From the IMG/VR virus record IMGVR_UViG_644736359_000006: DNA of 31,135 bases; one strand, 5' to 3'. Below are positions 7,845 through 18,299 of this stretch, piece by piece (positions within the stretch are counted from its first letter, which is position 1; each line of letters opens with the position of its first letter). Under the pieces are notes generated by a model that was not told the origin of the DNA, searched no databases, and saw nothing but the letters and a program-made list of their open reading frames with translations. The translations under genes and the position numbers were made by a program. Source of the DNA: a virus (taxonomy: Duplodnaviria > Heunggongvirae > Uroviricota > Caudoviricetes).

Positions 7845-9148
7845 TCAGCTAATCATGATGCCTGCAGTGGCTTTCTTCATCACCACAACCAGCAAATCGC
7901 TGATACTTGCTGTGGGATACCAGCCATTTACCAGCCATGCCGATACAGAAAATTCCAGTGTCATTACACCACTGCCTGCAGGCATATCAATAACACCCGT
8001 ATATATCAGCGTATTATCCAGAGCCGTTCGGTTATAAATTTCAGCACCGTTTTTTCGTACTATCAGACGGCATGAGGAGTAGATATCAGTATGATCTTGC
8101 TCATGTTTAGCGCCACTGAATGCCACCGCCGGAATAACAATTTGCCGGTCAAACGGCTGATCGTCATAAACCCTGACGGTAATGGTCCCTGATGGCCACC
8201 GCTCCGGTGCACGGGAGTCCCGGGGGAAAGCTTTGCCCACTGTTTTAACGAGATCGCCTTCAATCTGGTTCGCGGACAGTTTTCCCAGAACCCGGCAGTT
8301 CTCGTTAATCGTGACGTTGTTGAGCGTCCCGGAGTTCGCATTCACGTTACCGCTAATATCGGCATTTTTCGCCGTCAGCCGCCCGTCCGGTGTCAGGGAA
8401 AATGCCGGAGGATTACCGCCGCTGGTAATGGTGGGAGCCGTCAGATATTTCAGGAACACTTCGTTCATGAATATCTGATCGCCCTGACCAACAAACATCG
8501 GCTTTGTGTTGCCATTCGCAGGATTAATCATCGCAATCCTGTCCGCCGCCAGCAGCACCTGACTCTGCATACCGTCAGGGGTATTCTCAATACCGGCACC
8601 AATACCCGCGATATAAAGGCGTCCGTCCTGCATCTGCTGCAGCTTCACAGCCCACATGCTGTTCAGGTTATTATTTGTATCAACCTGAACCTTCTGTATC
8701 TGCTGGATTGCCGCACTCTGGTCTTCCAGTTTCTTATTGACGGTCTGCGTGATTTCATTACTGACATCCGTGATGGACGTTCTGATTTCCGCCAGGTCAG
8801 GCGCAAGCTGACCGTTATCAATCTGCGTCCACAACTCCTGAGCCAGATGGGTTTTCCCTATCTCTCCTTTGAAAAAATTCAGATAGCCGGATGCATCATC
8901 ACTCGGCTGGCCAACAGCCTCCACGAATGCCGATTTGCCAACGGTGTTCACACTGCGGATGTAAAAATAATAATCATGGCCCGGTTTGATATTGATACTG
9001 GCGGCTATCCAGTACAGCGCCGTGCCAAGATAGCGTGCTGTGGTTTCAACCTGCCTGATATCCGCAATCCGCTTTTCCGAGAACCAGAACTCAAACTGTA
9101 CCGTCGGATCATAAACCGCAAGATGCGGCGTGGCGGTTATCTGAAAAT
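7845..9148 (-). pseudogene. Host-specificity protein J (tail tip), C-terminal ~434 codons only, 5' end removed by IS3
   Basis: Long ORF runs without a native start straight into the IS3 left end at 9149; position upstream of lom matches lambda J. Confidence 0.7.
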
Positions 9149-9204
9149 TGATCTTACCCAGCAATAGTGGACACGCGGCTAAGTGAGTAAACTCTCAGTC
9201 AGAG

Positions 9205-9513
9205 GTGACTCACATGACAAAAACAGTATCAACCAGTAAAAAACCCCGTAAACAGCATTCGCCTGAATTTCGCAGTGAAGCCCTGAAGCTTGCTGAACGC
9301 ATCGGTGTTACTGCCGCAGCCCGTGAACTCAGCCTGTATGAATCACAGCTCTACAACTGGCGCAGTAAACAGCAAAATCAGCAGACGTCTTCTGAACGTG
9401 AACTGGAGATGTCTACCGAGATTGCACGTCTCAAACGCCAGCTGGCAGAACGGGATGAAGAGCTGGCTATCCTCCAAAAGGCCGCGACATACTTCGCGAA
9501 GCGCCTGAAATGA
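9205..9513 (+). CDS. insE: IS3 OrfA (InsE), HTH transposase component
   Basis: ORF ...[31 protein letters not shown]... with C-terminal leucine-zipper-like region; first ATG at 9205, conventional start a few codons later. Confidence 0.85.
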
Positions 9514-10376
9514 AGTATGTCTTTATTGAAAAACATCAGGCTGAGTTCAGCATCAAAGCAATGTGCCGCGTGCTCCGGGTGGCCCGCAGCGGCTGGTATA
9601 CGTGGTGTCAGCGGCGGACAAGGATAAGCACGCGTCAGCAGTTCCGCCAACACTGCGACAGCGTTGTCCTCGCGGCTTTTACCCGGTCAAAACAGCGTTA
9701 CGGTGCCCCACGCCTGACGGATGAACTGCGTGCTCAGGGTTACCCCTTTAACGTAAAAACCGTGGCGGCAAGCCTGCGCCGTCAGGGACTGAGGGCAAAG
9801 GCCTCCCGGAAGTTCAGCCCGGTCAGCTACCGCGCACACGGCCTGCCTGTGTCAGAAAATCTGTTGGAGCAGGATTTTTACGCCAGTGGCCCGAACCAGA
9901 AGTGGGCAGGAGACATCACGTACTTACGTACAGATGAAGGCTGGCTGTATCTGGCAGTGGTCATTGACCTGTGGTCACGTGCCGTTATTGGCTGGTCAAT
10001 GTCGCCACGCATGACGGCGCAACTGGCCTGCGATGCCCTGCAGATGGCGCTGTGGCGGCGTAAGAGGCCCCGGAACGTTATCGTTCACACGGACCGTGGA
10101 GGCCAGTACTGTTCAGCAGATTATCAGGCGCAACTGAAGCGGCATAATCTGCGTGGAAGTATGAGCGCAAAAGGTTGCTGCTACGATAATGCCTGCGTGG
10201 AAAGCTTCTTTCATTCGCTGAAAGTGGAATGTATCCATGGAGAACACTTTATCAGCCGGGAAATAATGCGGGCAACGGTGTTTAATTATATCGAATGTGA
10301 TTACAATCGGTGGCGGCGGCACAGTTGGTGTGGCGGCCTCAGTCCGGAACAATTTGAAAACAAGAACCTCGCTTAG
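9510..10376 (+). CDS. insF: IS3 OrfB (InsF), DDE transposase catalytic domain, in -1 frame relative to orfA
   Basis: 288-aa ORF overlapping the orfA stop (ATGA) in the -1 frame; DDE-type core ...HTDRGGQY... Confidence 0.85.
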
Positions 10377-10529
10377 GCCTGTGTCCATATTACGTGGGTA
10401 GGATCAATTCACCTAAATACGAGGCATTGCTGTAGTTGAATTGCATTGCTGTATTAGCCTGACAGTGACAGAATACGATATTGACTCTGTCACTTGTGAA
10501 ATGGTCAGAATGGTTAGCAGTTATGGTGA

Positions 10530-11879: not shown

Positions 11880-12092
11880 TCAAAGTGCCACAACATGAAC
11901 AGCCGCGGGGCCTTTAGGTCCGTTCTCAATACCAAATTCGACTTCCTGATTCTCAGTTAACGTTTTGAAATCGTTGCTCTGAATAGCTGAGAAATGGACA
12001 AACACATCTTTGCTACCATCTTTCGGCGTGATGAAACCAAAACCTTTTTCAGGGTTAAACCATTTCACTAAACCAGTCATTTTGTTAGACAT
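11880..12092 (-). CDS. cspI: CspA-family cold shock protein
   Basis: 70-aa product [38 protein letters not shown]... with RNP1/RNP2 motifs; long AT-rich 5' leader upstream. Confidence 0.85.
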
Positions 12093-12455
12093 CATTATTA
12101 CCTTTTGAAGAAGTTAGCCCTTGGGCAGAATGGTCCGAAAAAAAATATCAGAGAGAAAAACCAACAAGGAAATCTCAAGAGGTACAAATAATAAAATTAT
12201 AACAATGACTGCTTCAGATAATTTTGTAACAAACCAGAACACCATTAACGCATGATTAACCAACCATAGCAAGGATTACTTTTGTAAAGAAAAACACACG
12301 AATGAAACAATAGCTTTATTTATTAATAAAACGTGTCATTCTGTCTAATGACCTTTTATCTTACCCTTAAGATTTCAAGGATTTTGACTCATGGAAGAGT
12401 CCTTTTTATTTAAATTTCACATTCAGCGCTAAAAATAATCCGATTTAATATTAAT

Positions 12456-13483
<1,028 letters not shown>

Positions 13484-13596
13484 GGATATTTATCAGGATT
13501 TATCGGCTTCAAATCCCCGGATATGTTAAATCTTACCTCATCAGTGATGGGCACTGGCGGGAGGAGGATGTCAATCTGATAAACACAGAGGCGACT

Positions 13597-13857
13597 ATGG
13601 ATTACACAAATCTACCAAAACAAACTTTTGCTGATTTAATCGCACTCAGGCAAGCAGTCGTAGCTCTAATCAACTTGTTGCCGGAGAAGGAAAAGGAATT
13701 AGTTAAAGCGCTTCTTAACAGAACTGCCGCCGATTTTTCATCATATCCACTGACAGATGACCTTGCGGACCTTCCTGAATTAATTGCAGCGTCCGCCAAT
13801 AAGCTTACTGAAGAGATTTACCCTCCTCAAAAATCTTCACAAAATTCCTGCGAGTAA
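13597..13857 (+). CDS. Hypothetical protein, opposite strand to the lysis genes
   Basis: 86-aa ORF with GAGG RBS 6 nt upstream of ATG; 3' end overlaps the convergent 183-aa gene; could be a shadow ORF. Confidence 0.3.
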   Translation: MDYTNLPKQTFADLIALRQAVVALINLLPEKEKELVKALLNRTAADFSSYPLTDDLADLPELIAASANKLTEEIYPPQKSSQNSCE

Positions 13858-14356
13858 CTTCAATGCAATAATCGTAAAACGCCGCAAACTGCTCATCGCG
13901 GCGTTTTTTTTCATCTTCAGAAGGAATCAGCACCGACAATTTTTTATTCAGATCAGCGACGCTGCCCTCCAGTTTTTCAATGGGCGATTCAATATCATCT
14001 TTTTCTGACCGCAATGCCGTCGGTGGCGTCTTCAGAGAACCAGTAATTCTTCCCGGTAGCTTTCCTTTGTAGGTTATCCACACATTCTGCGCCTCTAAAA
14101 TTATGGGGCGCTTTTCCGGCGACTGCTCATCCCCTTCACATAACCCGGCAGCAACATCCAGGAAGACCTGTCTGATGCTCCTTCTGGCTGCTGCCTCATA
14201 AAACTCCAGCGCAGCTCCTTCAACACGGTCCATGGCGACATCCAGGCCAAAAATTTCACCGTCAAAGCGTTCTTTGTCCTGTAAGGCTACAGTTACCGTA
14301 ACTTTATTCTCAAAATTACGGACTCCTTTCACAACCAGTTCATAGTCTTGAGTCAT
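13805..14356 (-). CDS. Uncharacterised protein between holin and endolysin (ydfR position)
   Basis: 183-aa acidic ORF; GAGGAGAG RBS; starts 5 nt after the holin stop; no TM segment or signal peptide. Confidence 0.5.
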   Translation of the reverse strand: MTQDYELVVKGVRNFENKVTVTVALQDKERFDGEIFGLDVAMDRVEGAALEFYEAAARRSIRQVFLDVAAGLCEGDEQSPEKRPIILEAQNVWITYKGKLPGRITGSLKTPPTALRSEKDDIESPIEKLEGSVADLNKKLSVLIPSEDEKKRRDEQFAAFYDYCIEVTRRNFVKIFEEGKSLQ

Positions 14357-14360
14357 TGGA

Positions 14361-14576
14361 TTACTCTCCTCTCGCAGCCTTACGCCTGTCTTCTTTAATC
14401 TTGAAATAAAGATTTGTCAGATACGTCAGCATGCCAAATACCAGACTACCCAATACACCTATTGCCGCCCACTGTGAGGGCGTGACTTTATCGAGCAACT
14501 GTAAAAACCAGTAGCCAGCACTGCCTGCAGAGGTGCTGTAGGCGATGCCCGTTGTTAACTTATCCATGGATTTCAT
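14361..14576 (-). CDS. essQ: Class II pinholin, phage 21 S-like
   Basis: 71-aa product [71 protein letters not shown] with dual-start motif MKSM; GGAGGTGA RBS. Confidence 0.85.
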
Positions 14577-14766: not shown

Positions 14767-15489
14767 CTAAGAAAATCTTGATAAATATTGGTGCGGAGGC
14801 ACACCAAAATATCCTCTAAAAACACTTACAAAATATGATGCATTGTCATACCCGCATATTCCCGCCACCTTGCCGACAGTATGGTTACTGTAGATCAATA
14901 ATCTTTGCGCCATCATCATTCGTTCTTCAAGAATTAATTTACTAAACGATAACCCTTCGTCTTTTAATTTTCTTTTTAACAAACTCTCGCTCATATATAA
15001 TCTTGAAGATATATCACAAAGTCTCCATGACGCTGAGATATCCGAGTGAATAATAGCCTTAACTTTACAACCTAAGCTATTAAGACTTCCGAACAAAAAA
15101 CTTTGCACTATTTTCTCTGAAGATAAGACAGCAAGACATGCAAGTGATATTTGATTTCTAACTACATCCACGGTTTTGCTATCACAATTCAAGCATGCAA
15201 CCAAGTTCTTTAACAATGAAAAATCTTCACATTCTACTATCAAGTATGACGGATAAAACCTTCTTACAGAAAAAGGTGAGAGTGTGTAGTTTTTAAAGAA
15301 ATCATTAACTGTTTTCTCCTCAACATCTACGATCATTAGATGATCTGTATTTGACGAAAAAAGATCTTTTAAATTGTATTCAATGAGGACAGCATTTCCT
15401 TTTTTAAACAAAATATCTTCTTTACCAATTCGGACACCAAACGAGTTCAACACCAAAATGATAGAACATATGTATGGCATATTATCCAC
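14767..15489 (-). CDS. AraC/XylS-family transcriptional regulator, AppY/Rns-like
   Basis: 240-aa ORF with C-terminal AraC-type HTH (...GKVAGICGYDNASYFVSVFRGYFGVPPHQY); AT-rich coding sequence suggests foreign origin. Confidence 0.75.
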   Translation of the reverse strand: MDNMPYICSIILVLNSFGVRIGKEDILFKKGNAVLIEYNLKDLFSSNTDHLMIVDVEEKTVNDFFKNYTLSPFSVRRFYPSYLIVECEDFSLLKNLVACLNCDSKTVDVVRNQISLACLAVLSSEKIVQSFLFGSLNSLGCKVKAIIHSDISASWRLCDISSRLYMSESLLKRKLKDEGLSFSKLILEERMMMAQRLLIYSNHTVGKVAGICGYDNASYFVSVFRGYFGVPPHQYLSRFS

Positions 15490-16758
15490 CTGATATCATT
15501 GGGGTTACACCAGGTAAGTATAGGTGGAAAATCAATATTCGCCAGTTCAACAATAAGGAAAATCTCATTGCATCACAACTATAAAACCATGTGTTTAACT
15601 CACAAAAAACAAATCATTAAACTAATCTGTTATATTATAATAGCTGCGTGCAATAATAATATTATATGCTCTTAATATTCACTTGAAATATCTTCATATA
15701 AAAACAGATTGAATAAAATCTTTTGGGGCTGGTATGTTTACCAACATTAAATTGCATCTCAATGTTTTCTTTAGCGTGAACAGGATTTTTATAAAAACTG
15801 ACACTATGAGCATCATAGCGTAGTTTTTACGATTGTAAATATCCTGCATACAGGAACTCATCACTTTCAGATGATATCGCATACAGTTAATTCACCATCA
15901 GTCTTAGAGCCAGTTCTTCCGGATAGGGATCGAAGTAATTCTGTGTAAGCAAGTAATCATTAGGATACTCACCCAGATAATGCTTCAGCAGAGTCAACGG
16001 CGCAAGAAGAGGCAATGTGCCAAAGCGATAGTTAAGTATAACCTCGCTCAACTCTTTACGCTGGCGTGTGCTTAAGTAATTACTAAAATACCCCTGTATA
16101 TGCATCAGCACATTCGTGTGATTTTTACGTGATGCTGGTTTTCTGAGAATCGCCATCAGATTATCACGATACACCTCAAAGTATGATTCAAGGTCCGCCC
16201 ACTCGTGTATTGCAGCCACAAATGGTCCCATATCTTTATAGCCTGCCTGGCTATGCGCCAACAACTGAAGCTTATAACGACTATGAAAAGCTAATAACTC
16301 TCTTCTTGATAATTTCTCCTTGTAAAGGTGATTGAGCTCATCCAAAGCAAAAACTCTTTCAATAAAATTCTCACGAAGCACTGGATCATGTAATCGCCCA
16401 TCCTCTTCAACCGGTAGCCAGGAAAACTTTTCCATCAAAGTGCTCGTAAATAGTCCCACTCCATCTTTACGACCTCGATTACCATTTTCATCATAGACAC
16501 GCACGCGCTCCATGCCACAGCTGGGAGATTTAGCACAAACCACAAACCCCGATACATCCTTTAATTTGTCCATATAAGAACGACTAAACTCTGTCATTCT
16601 CTCTGTCACATCCTCATTCTGGTCGTGGCTGAAACACATCCGTATATTTCCTTGCTTCGAGCGCACAAGTCGTAGAGCAGGACGCGGAACTGGCAGCCCT
16701 ATTGATCTTACCCAGCAATAGTGGACACGCGGCTAAGTGAGTAAACTCTCAGTCAGAG

Positions 16759-17067
16759 GTGACTCACATGACAAAAACAGTATCAACCAGTAAAAAACCC
16801 CGTAAACAGCATTCGCCTGAATTTCGCAGTGAAGCCCTGAAGCTTGCTGAACGCATCGGTGTTACTGCCGCAGCCCGTGAACTCAGCCTGTATGAATCAC
16901 AACTCTACAACTGGCGCAGTAAACAGCAAAATCAGCAGACGTCTTCTGAACGTGAACTGGAGATGTCTACCGAGATTGCACGTCTCAAACGCCAGCTGGC
17001 AGAACGGGATGAAGAGCTGGCTATCCTCCAAAAGGCCGCGACATACTTCGCGAAGCGCCTGAAATGA
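16759..17067 (+). CDS. insE: IS3 OrfA (InsE)
   Basis: Identical product to copy 1 orfA. Confidence 0.85.
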
Positions 17068-17930
17068 AGTATGTCTTTATTGAAAAACATCAGGCTGAGT
17101 TCAGCATCAAAGCAATGTGCCGCGTGCTCCGGGTGGCCCGCAGCGGCTGGTATACGTGGTGTCAGCGGCGGACAAGGATAAGCACGCGTCAGCAGTTCCG
17201 CCAACACTGCGACAGCGTTGTCCTCGCGGCTTTTACCCGGTCAAAACAGCGTTACGGTGCCCCACGCCTGACGGATGAACTGCGTGCTCAGGGTTACCCC
17301 TTTAACGTAAAAACCGTGGCGGCAAGCCTGCGCCGTCAGGGACTGAGGGCAAAGGCCTCCCGGAAGTTCAGCCCGGTCAGCTACCGCGCACACGGCCTGC
17401 CTGTGTCAGAAAATCTGTTGGAGCAGGATTTTTACGCCAGTGGCCCGAACCAGAAGTGGGCAGGAGACATCACGTACTTACGTACAGATGAAGGCTGGCT
17501 GTATCTGGCAGTGGTCATTGACCTGTGGTCACGTGCCGTTATTGGCTGGTCAATGTCGCCACGCATGACGGCGCAACTGGCCTGCGATGCCCTGCAGATG
17601 GCGCTGTGGCGGCGTAAGAGGCCCCGGAACGTTATCGTTCACACGGACCGTGGAGGCCAGTACTGTTCAGCAGATTATCAGGCGCAACTGAAGCGGCATA
17701 ATCTGCGTGGAAGTATGAGCGCAAAAGGTTGCTGCTACGATAATGCCTGCGTGGAAAGCTTCTTTCATTCGCTGAAAGTGGAATGTATCCATGGAGAACA
17801 CTTTATCAGCCGGGAAATAATGCGGGCAACGGTGTTTAATTATATCGAATGTGATTACAATCGGTGGCGGCGGCACAGTTGGTGTGGCGGCCTCAGTCCG
17901 GAACAATTTGAAAACCAGAACCTCGCTTAG
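17064..17930 (+). CDS. insF: IS3 OrfB (InsF)
   Basis: As copy 1 but ...EQFENQNLA instead of ...EQFENKNLA. Confidence 0.85.
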
Positions 17931-18299
17931 GCCTGTGTCCATATTACGTGGGTAGGATCATATAGCCATTTCCGGACATACTGGTCTGAATGTTACCCAT
18001 TCCACTAATTTGTCCATTAAAAAGTCATCTCTTTTGTGACCACCATCAAAACGAACAGCAGAACCGCCCAAACAACCGCTGATCCCAATCACAGGTTTTT
18101 TTATCATTTCCTCCCCCTTGACTAATTCATTAACACATAAACTTTGTAGTGCACGGACTAAATTGCCTTTCTGGCTTCATCACTGACAATTTTTCTGTTA
18201 TTGACTATTCCTAATATAGTAGGAAAGTTCTTTAAGTGATCGGTCGTACTCATCTATCTTTCATACTTACTCTCAACTATCAAAAGTACAGGATTTATT

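Follow-up and report, generated by a model that had tools for sequence, protein, structure and literature searches.

What do the two genes between the pinholin and endolysin genes of an S21-type phage lysis cassette encode, and do they serve lysis, defence or neither? The cassette lies in a tailed-phage sequence of 31,135 nucleotides (IMG/VR record IMGVR_UViG_644736359_000006), the whole of which we call the window. On its minus strand the gene order is S21-type pinholin (S), a 183-residue open reading frame (ORF), signal-anchor-release (SAR) endolysin (R) and Rz; on the plus strand, an 86-residue ORF converges on the 183-residue ORF and overlaps its 3′ end. A preliminary description took the two ORFs for a gene pair inserted into a cassette in which S is normally followed directly by R. 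That the pair is genuine is borne out by the layout, the Pfam and PHROG matches and the homologues. The premise about S and R proved wrong: of the phage records with an S21-type holin (438 in all), 101 have a DUF1327 (YdfR) gene as well and 337 have no ydfR gene, so a ydfR-type gene after S is a common alternative and no oddity. The S–R interval is best explained as a mosaic accessory module and not as a single insertion. In the composite reading that we favour, and consider probable though by no means assured, the larger gene is a fusion of YdfR with a second module, A, and the smaller gene, B, is an autonomous antisense moron, the two being expressed in separate phases. On our best reading, the pair looks like ordinary phage cargo and no new kind of system, as the accessory role proposed earlier would have it.

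The 183-residue ORF (13805–14356, minus strand) has its ATG 4 nt past the holin stop, preceded by a strong Shine-Dalgarno site, GAGAGGAGAG, and its product has an isoelectric point of 5.0. It matches phrog_2091 over its full length (E=7e-109) and Pfam DUF1327 (PF07041; E=1.6e-43, 147.2 bits against a cutoff of 25), so it is no uncharacterised orphan, as had been thought. The Pfam match is limited to residues 1–112 (codons 1–112; 14021–14356). Residues 1–74 are 92% identical to YdfR of E. coli K-12, and a 96%-identical relative is named 'YdfR family protein' by NCBI. The earlier placement of the gene at the position of ydfR in the Qin prophage was correct, as was the observation that its product is longer (183 residues, compared with 103 in K-12). 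Lengths in the family are discrete (103, 114, 116, 171, 176, 183, 211, 268 and 296 residues); the N-terminal domain is common to all, and divergence sets in past a GSLKTPP motif. The order S21-type holin, DUF1327 gene, endolysin is found in 80 IMG/VR loci. By sequence, then, the 183-residue protein belongs to the common YdfR/DUF1327 family and carries a second, fused module. Had it been a routine, conserved lysis-cassette component with a known structural role, it would have lost the special interest first attached to it; the DUF1327 part is indeed routine and conserved, but no structural role is known for it.

In an AlphaFold2 model of the protein, residues 1–73 form three strands and a helix, with a predicted local distance difference test score (pLDDT) of 73–89; residues 74–127 are of low confidence, and the C-terminus forms two helices. 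Few parts of the family are as conserved as the segment of residues 74–112 (14021–14137; EGDEQSPEKRPIILEAQNVWITYKGKLPGRITGSLKTPP), yet its pLDDT is about 30, and K-12 YdfR has no such segment. It may be a partner-dependent binding motif.

The YdfR domain also offers a link to RNA metabolism. A two-hybrid screen published in 2026 with RNase G (Rng), the RNase E paralogue, as bait isolated YdfR(1–72), and residues 1–72 sufficed for two-hybrid binding to the N-terminal, catalytic half of RNase E (PMC13232886). In the same study, Rne1–598 co-purified with full-length Strep-YdfR, and the eluate held DNase-resistant nucleic acid (PMC13232886). The domain in the window, being nearly identical to that of K-12, would be expected to bind the catalytic half of RNase E likewise, and possibly RNA. 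This screen was the relevant match in a literature search for 'ydfR', and a search for 'DUF1327' returned one genomics paper.

The second module, A, comprises codons 113–183 and the stop (13805–14020, minus strand). It is helical and charged, is fused in frame to DUF1327 here, and exists elsewhere as a free-standing gene. A profile of A modules finds a free-standing 67-residue protein in E. coli (P0158, indexed for about 400 blocks), which has an N-terminus of its own (MNPEEMNRR...), as well as free-standing 73-residue proteins in Salmonella (P0184, P0203, P0213 and P0172); the A module of the window aligns with the 73-residue Salmonella protein at E=9e-6. Free-standing A retains proper starts and translational coupling. 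Further combinations include DUF1327 with an A-like module and a C-domain (296 residues), A with the C-domain (185 residues, in O157:H7) and DUF1327 with the C-domain but without A (268 residues, in Stx2 phage 86). Neither A nor B contains a Pfam or NCBIfam domain in our scans. A search of the YdfR profile against PDB sequences gave a match to the PARP1 linker/BRCT region (E=1e-3) across the charged A region, which we judged compositional.

The current annotation implies something else, namely that the 183-residue ORF is a YdfR pseudogene in decay and its C-terminal extension read-through without meaning. In E. coli ATCC 8739 and other genomes, the RefSeq pipeline PGAP gives the ORF as a partial pseudogene that takes in just its first 336 nt. 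The extension nevertheless stays open in forms of 171, 176, 183 and 211 residues that differ by in-frame indels, is homologous to the free-standing E. coli and Salmonella genes, and is present in complete phage genomes; its dN/dS is below one (0.24–0.5 for A between Salmonella variants). We therefore regard decay as scarcely credible. The long YdfR forms of 183, 211 and 296 residues (the window, L001, L005, L006 and L104) are all called 336-nt pseudogenes 'missing C-terminus', with A left unannotated. That the intact 296-residue form receives the same call points to an annotation artefact, and the calls look like a systematic consequence of using the short YdfR as reference. We also considered whether B might merely mirror, on the opposite strand, a YdfR C-terminal domain that has decayed; this was rejected, as tblastn with the 296- and 268-residue variants found no remnant in the window beyond A.

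B itself (13597–13857, plus strand) matches phrog_2572 (E=4e-53) and encodes a protein with an isoelectric point of 4.6. Its 3′ end shares 53 nt with that of the 183-residue ORF (13805–13857), and its start is preceded by a Shine-Dalgarno sequence, AGAGG (13587–13591), 5 nt upstream of the ATG; both the ribosome-binding site and the overlap had been reported correctly. Upstream of the homologues in Salmonella and in a metagenomic contig (L091), an equivalent TAAGGA is present. Full-length homologues exist for B as for the 183-residue ORF. Those of B have 89–93 residues, about 45% identity and a conserved N-terminal half, and the 93-residue Salmonella protein also matches phrog_2572 (E=4e-23). 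B is carried by 310 of 5426 complete E. coli genomes (~6%) and by 8 of the 438 phage records with an S21 holin, including the complete genomes PhiR63_1, 2H10, PhiR5_1 and PhiR12. The preliminary description had made its case depend on such conservation in homologous loci, and this was found. The diversity sampled is narrow, covering E. coli, Salmonella and a few metagenomic contigs, and an exhaustive profile search of 1.84 billion representatives returned only 13 B-type proteins. Outside the overlap, dN/dS is 0.19–0.29 in deep comparisons and 0.45–0.6 in close ones. By its sequence evolution, B is a real protein gene under relaxed purifying selection.

An AlphaFold2 model of B has three helices (pLDDT 72). 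No relative of known function was found for it by sequence or structure, nor by a profile search of PDB sequences. In the PhiR phage records B bears the label 'DUF1823', which Pfam scans (E<=0.1 for B of the window, E<=1 for homologues) failed to reproduce. In the literature, the RefSeq accessions of B were unmatched, and searches on lysis-cassette morons returned nothing on this locus.

How might a gene oriented against the late operon be expressed? Upstream of B there is a promoter-like block, ATATTTATCAGGATTTATC (13486–13527, plus strand), with a −35 element TTATCG (13500–13505), a 16-nt spacer and a −10 element TATGTT (13522–13527). Between the E. coli and Salmonella modules the elements ATATTTATCAGGnTTTATC and GGnTATnnTnA are invariant, and the spacer has diverged. 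In E. coli the block stands back-to-back with the endolysin start codon (13481–13483); in Salmonella and in locus L103 it adjoins no gene start, which indicates that it belongs to the A–B module. Its conservation suggests that it acts as a promoter. The putative 5′ untranslated region of B contains a small hairpin, CAGTG-ATGGG-CACTG (13542–13556, plus strand), which is partly conserved in homologous modules (fold z-score −1.8).

At the other end, B is followed by an intrinsic terminator (13876–13911, plus strand) with a 10-bp stem (AAAACGCCGC / GCGGCGUUUU), a 12-nt loop and a U8 run (−14.6 kcal/mol, z=−3.8). The hairpin, which begins 19 nt past the B stop, falls within the A codons for KKRRDEQFAAF. 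Of the 63 B-carrying loci read, 62 have an intact stem, and in all three B-less loci read the stem is mismatched or has lost its 5′ arm. Two independent stem substitutions give G·U pairs on the B strand, which would be C·A mismatches on the late strand. Moreover, in L091 a compensatory change from G-C to A-U preserves the stem and alters the A protein (R>H, A>V). This covariation amounts to a handful of independent changes. No Rfam family matched within the S–R interval, nor over B in related loci. Rfam small RNAs do occur near cassettes of this kind: isrI lies upstream of the holin in a Salmonella prophage (L092, 3018–3115), and STnc100 lies in the late region of an E. coli Stx-like prophage (L097, 149–341).

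These signals raise the question of whether the conserved thing is the transcript, an antisense RNA or transcriptional roadblock against leaky read-through into R and Rz in the lysogen, with the 86-residue ORF incidental. Such a role would account for the retention of the promoter block ahead of three unrelated downstream ORFs (see below), for dN/dS values near 0.6–1.2 and occasional start loss or nonsense change among close E. coli variants of B, and for the low-complexity C-terminal tail of B, which is overprinted on A. Against it, dN/dS in deep comparisons is 0.19–0.33, homologues at about 45% identity keep the length and the N-terminal half of B, its Shine-Dalgarno site and its start codon are conserved, and all three alternative ORFs are PHROG families with strong Shine-Dalgarno sites. 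An RNA-only function is accordingly very improbable.

Under the composite reading, B would be transcribed from a weak sigma-70-type promoter of its own, next to the start of the endolysin gene, with a 5′ untranslated region of about 60 nt. In the lysogen, B alone would be made, from a transcript that stops at the hairpin within A. Once the prophage is induced, Q-antiterminated late transcription would run through S, ydfR::A, the antisense of all of B, R and Rz; it would yield YdfR::A and silence B by promoter occlusion and antisense pairing. Since late read-through would both make YdfR::A and shut off B, the two products would belong to opposite phases of the phage life cycle. The suggestion that the pair rides on late transcription can therefore be kept for the 183-residue gene; it has to be given up for the 86-residue gene, which is antisense and has a promoter-like block and terminator of its own.

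Four things were shown in silico: how the 183-residue protein divides into domains, that A and B are coding, that the transcription and translation signals of B are conserved and that the pair recurs in different contexts. Several points weigh against the composite reading built on them. Measured against the consensus, the promoter-like block is weak, and a generic promoter scanner missed it because the −35 element matches at only 3 of 6 positions. Among 19 E. coli haplotypes of B, 14 synonymous and 20 non-synonymous changes were counted, the B start codon is lost in the lineage with the 176-residue form, and one haplotype has a nonsense change; taken together with the dN/dS values, this means that the constraint on B is real but relaxed. 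A-like modules occur without B in the 296- and 185-residue forms and in L103, where B is internally deleted. Because A and B physically overlap, they would in part be inherited together in any case, and co-occurrence by itself proves no functional link. The prophage in the window is cryptic and has IS3 copies between Q and S, so that its late expression may be defective. As to YdfR, its overexpression altered few transcripts, and, as the authors concede, the co-purified RNA may have come from a contaminant (PMC13232886).

We next consider how widely A and B travel together. A with a convergent B was found in at least three settings: as part of the DUF1327 fusion, by itself behind S21, and behind Rz in Salmonella prophages. 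The fused arrangement of the window is also carried, at 97–98% identity, by the complete phage genomes PhiR63_1 and 2H10. In the E. coli variant without DUF1327 the order is S21, A (67 residues), a convergent 86-residue gene and R. In the Salmonella prophages it is holin_8, holin_3_7, GH19 endolysin, Rz (DUF2514), A (73 residues), convergent B (93 residues) and terminase, with A starting at the Rz stop and B overlapping the A 3′ end by 59 nt. Finally, in the metagenomic contig L091, a K-12-like YdfR runs into a related module, A′, accompanied by an 89-residue convergent gene, before R. Across these contexts A and B are inherited as one interlocked cassette. Its base composition sets it apart: the A–B module has a GC content of 41–43%, compared with 50–53% in both flanks, that is, about 9 points lower. 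Another arrangement was seen in L103 (750–850), where an A′-type protein with a different N-terminal domain lies upstream of a holin_8 gene; there the internally deleted B follows the A′-type protein, with the 3′ third of B joined to the promoter block. The A–B module thus also decays by deletion.

Other S21 cassettes have the same promoter block ahead of different genes. With the 114-residue YdfR there is a convergent 90-residue gene (phrog_2411; L052), and with the 268-residue YdfR a 104-residue gene (phrog_1853; orf6 of Stx2 phage 86, L004), each with a strong Shine-Dalgarno site. Homology among the 86-, 90- and 104-residue ORFs was rejected at the sequence level: BLASTP found none, and Smith-Waterman scores lay within those of shuffled controls (p=0.3–0.65). 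Among cassettes without a convergent ORF, the block is intact in L085, has a mutated −10 element in L054 (the common 116-residue type) and is absent from L076. The site is a swap point for interchangeable small convergent genes.

The recurrence of the pair invites a stronger claim, that A and B are a coupled antagonistic pair: B, expressed in the lysogen, would be an exclusion, defence or growth-modulating protein, and late A, free or fused to YdfR, its neutraliser, giving the phage self-immunity. In favour of this, the two occur together with a 3′ overlap of 53–59 nt in four divergent lineages and three genomic contexts, purifying selection acts on both, free-standing A has proper starts and translational coupling, and the orientations predict opposite-phase expression. 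The overlap by itself would hold both genes together, however; A-like modules persist without B, and the 90- and 104-residue convergent ORFs have no A-like partner. Nor does either protein resemble a defence, toxin or antitoxin protein by PADLOC, Pfam or structural comparison. In particular, PADLOC-DB 2.0 contained no family matching the 183- or 86-residue protein at E<=1, and the earlier thought that one of them might be a defence gene finds no backing there. An antagonistic pair is possible but, in our view, unlikely. Its more specific form, a self-immunity toggle in which lysogen-made B blocks a step of phage development or host physiology, late A, free or joined to the YdfR domain, neutralises B and convergent transcription with the embedded terminator makes their expression mutually exclusive, strikes us as quite doubtful. 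If it were true, the antisense promoter by the endolysin start would mark a place where alternative effectors of the lysogenic phase (the 86-, 90- and 104-residue ORFs) are exchanged.

The location of the pair suggests yet another role: that the pair, or YdfR::A alone, tunes lysis as a timing factor acting on the pinholin, the SAR endolysin or the spanins. A–B adjoins lysis genes wherever it was seen, be it in the S–R interval, immediately behind Rz or just upstream of a holin as in L103, and ydfR-type genes are translationally close-coupled to S. The conserved N-terminal helix of B is borderline hydrophobic, with a maximum Kyte-Doolittle value of 1.62 over a 19-residue window. The segment responsible for that value is amphipathic and includes D, R, Q and N, and the corresponding maximum for the 183-residue protein is 0.69; neither protein has a clear transmembrane or SAR segment of the kind expected of a membrane lysis regulator. 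Furthermore, the module is found with unrelated lysis sets (S21/GH24 as opposed to holin_8/holin_3_7/GH19), which makes a specific partner among these holins and endolysins unlikely. The 337 S21 records without a ydfR gene are phage genomes all the same, and the start of the late region is a general moron hotspot. The timing factor envisaged in the preliminary description thus drew no support from anything tested, whether transmembrane segments or antiholin similarity, and we hold a role in lysis to be decidedly improbable.

The composite reading remains the one we prefer. As for the surroundings of the locus, the window matches a Qin-like prophage found in E. coli ATCC 8739 and in the E. coli B lineage, with 99.7% identity across 19 kb and 100% identity in the S–R interval itself. 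The upstream edge of the insert is the S21-type pinholin gene (14361–14576, minus strand; 71 codons, dual start MKSM; PF04971, E=6e-34; named essD by PGAP in the identical ATCC 8739 locus). Its downstream edge is the 177-residue SAR-type endolysin (12950–13483, minus strand; PF00959, E=2.6e-24; phrog_7; PGAP name rrrQ), followed by Rz (12456–12953, minus strand; DUF2514). Directly downstream of Rz, as in K-12 Qin, lie the cold-shock genes cspI and ymcF, with ynfN and gnsB (11880–12095, minus strand, and neighbours). Just upstream of the holin, an island of 31–35% GC encodes a 240-residue AraC-family helix-turn-helix regulator (14767–15489, minus strand; PF12833/PF00165), a further low-GC cargo gene. 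It presumably resembles the AraC-like regulators of enterohaemorrhagic E. coli prophages (Psr/PatE). Farther upstream, between Q and the lysis genes, an IS3 copy (~16701–17960) interrupts a YbgA/DUF1722 and 2-thiouracil-desulfurase gene (15887–16666, minus strand), and a second IS3 copy lies in the tail region (~9147–10408). The IS3 that splits the Q gene in ATCC 8739 is not in the window.

Our analysis divides a widespread 'hypothetical' protein into a YdfR domain, for which RNase E binding provides an experimental handle, and a portable module, and it reveals that RefSeq annotation systematically truncates long YdfR forms to pseudogenes. It also points to a fixed site in S21-type cassettes at which a conserved putative antisense promoter precedes interchangeable small genes. 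Should the products made in the lysogen influence superinfection, prophage stability or host RNA metabolism, the site would offer a compact, testable model of the way in which temperate phages keep lysogenic and lytic functions apart by means of overlapping convergent genes. If they have no such effects, it stays an ordinary moron locus.

How does the locus compare with known systems? YdfR of K-12 Qin (P76160) belongs to the same Pfam family, PF07041, as the window protein and likewise lies directly after an S21-type holin. It differs in having 103 residues, diverging after residue 74 and overlapping rrrQ by 4 nt, and it has no convergent gene, whereas the window protein retains the conserved 75–112 segment and carries the additional 71-residue A module. 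Since the K-12-like middle region of L091 continues into an A′–B pair, the K-12 form of ydfR (L087) looks like a deletion derivative.

In architecture alone, A–B recalls type I toxin–antitoxin loci. The B. subtilis prophage loci txpA/ratA and bsrG/SR4 consist of convergent, 3′-overlapping transcripts. A and B are likewise convergent prophage units with a 3′ overlap of tens of nucleotides, for which antisense control is possible. Both partners, however, are soluble proteins of about 70–90 residues; the pair includes neither a small hydrophobic membrane toxin nor a non-coding antisense RNA, and has no Rfam match. It is no closer to type II systems, as the genes are convergent and no toxin or antitoxin domain was found in A or B with Pfam or NCBIfam.

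For the YdfR domain, the counterparts would be phage modulators of RNase E, such as T7 gp0.7 and phiKZ Dip. These could be functional analogues if YdfR modulates RNase E late in infection; there is no similarity of sequence or fold. The target of YdfR is the catalytic N-terminal half of RNase E, not the C-terminal scaffold, and RNA decay changed little when YdfR was overexpressed (PMC13232886).

Of the known classes, B comes closest to the morons: it lies antisense between two late genes, has its own promoter-like block and terminator, departs from its flanks in its lower GC content and is patchily distributed, being absent from many otherwise similar cassettes. Lambdoid morons are autonomously transcribed genes in late operons; lambda bor, for example, is a neighbour of the lysis genes and is read in the direction opposite to that of the late operon. 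Unlike the bor product, B is no lipoprotein and is predicted to be a cytoplasmic, acidic, helical protein. It also differs from known morons in that the adjoining gene contains its terminator and last 17 codons, that it has a fixed partner in A, and that its promoter block serves three unrelated ORFs.

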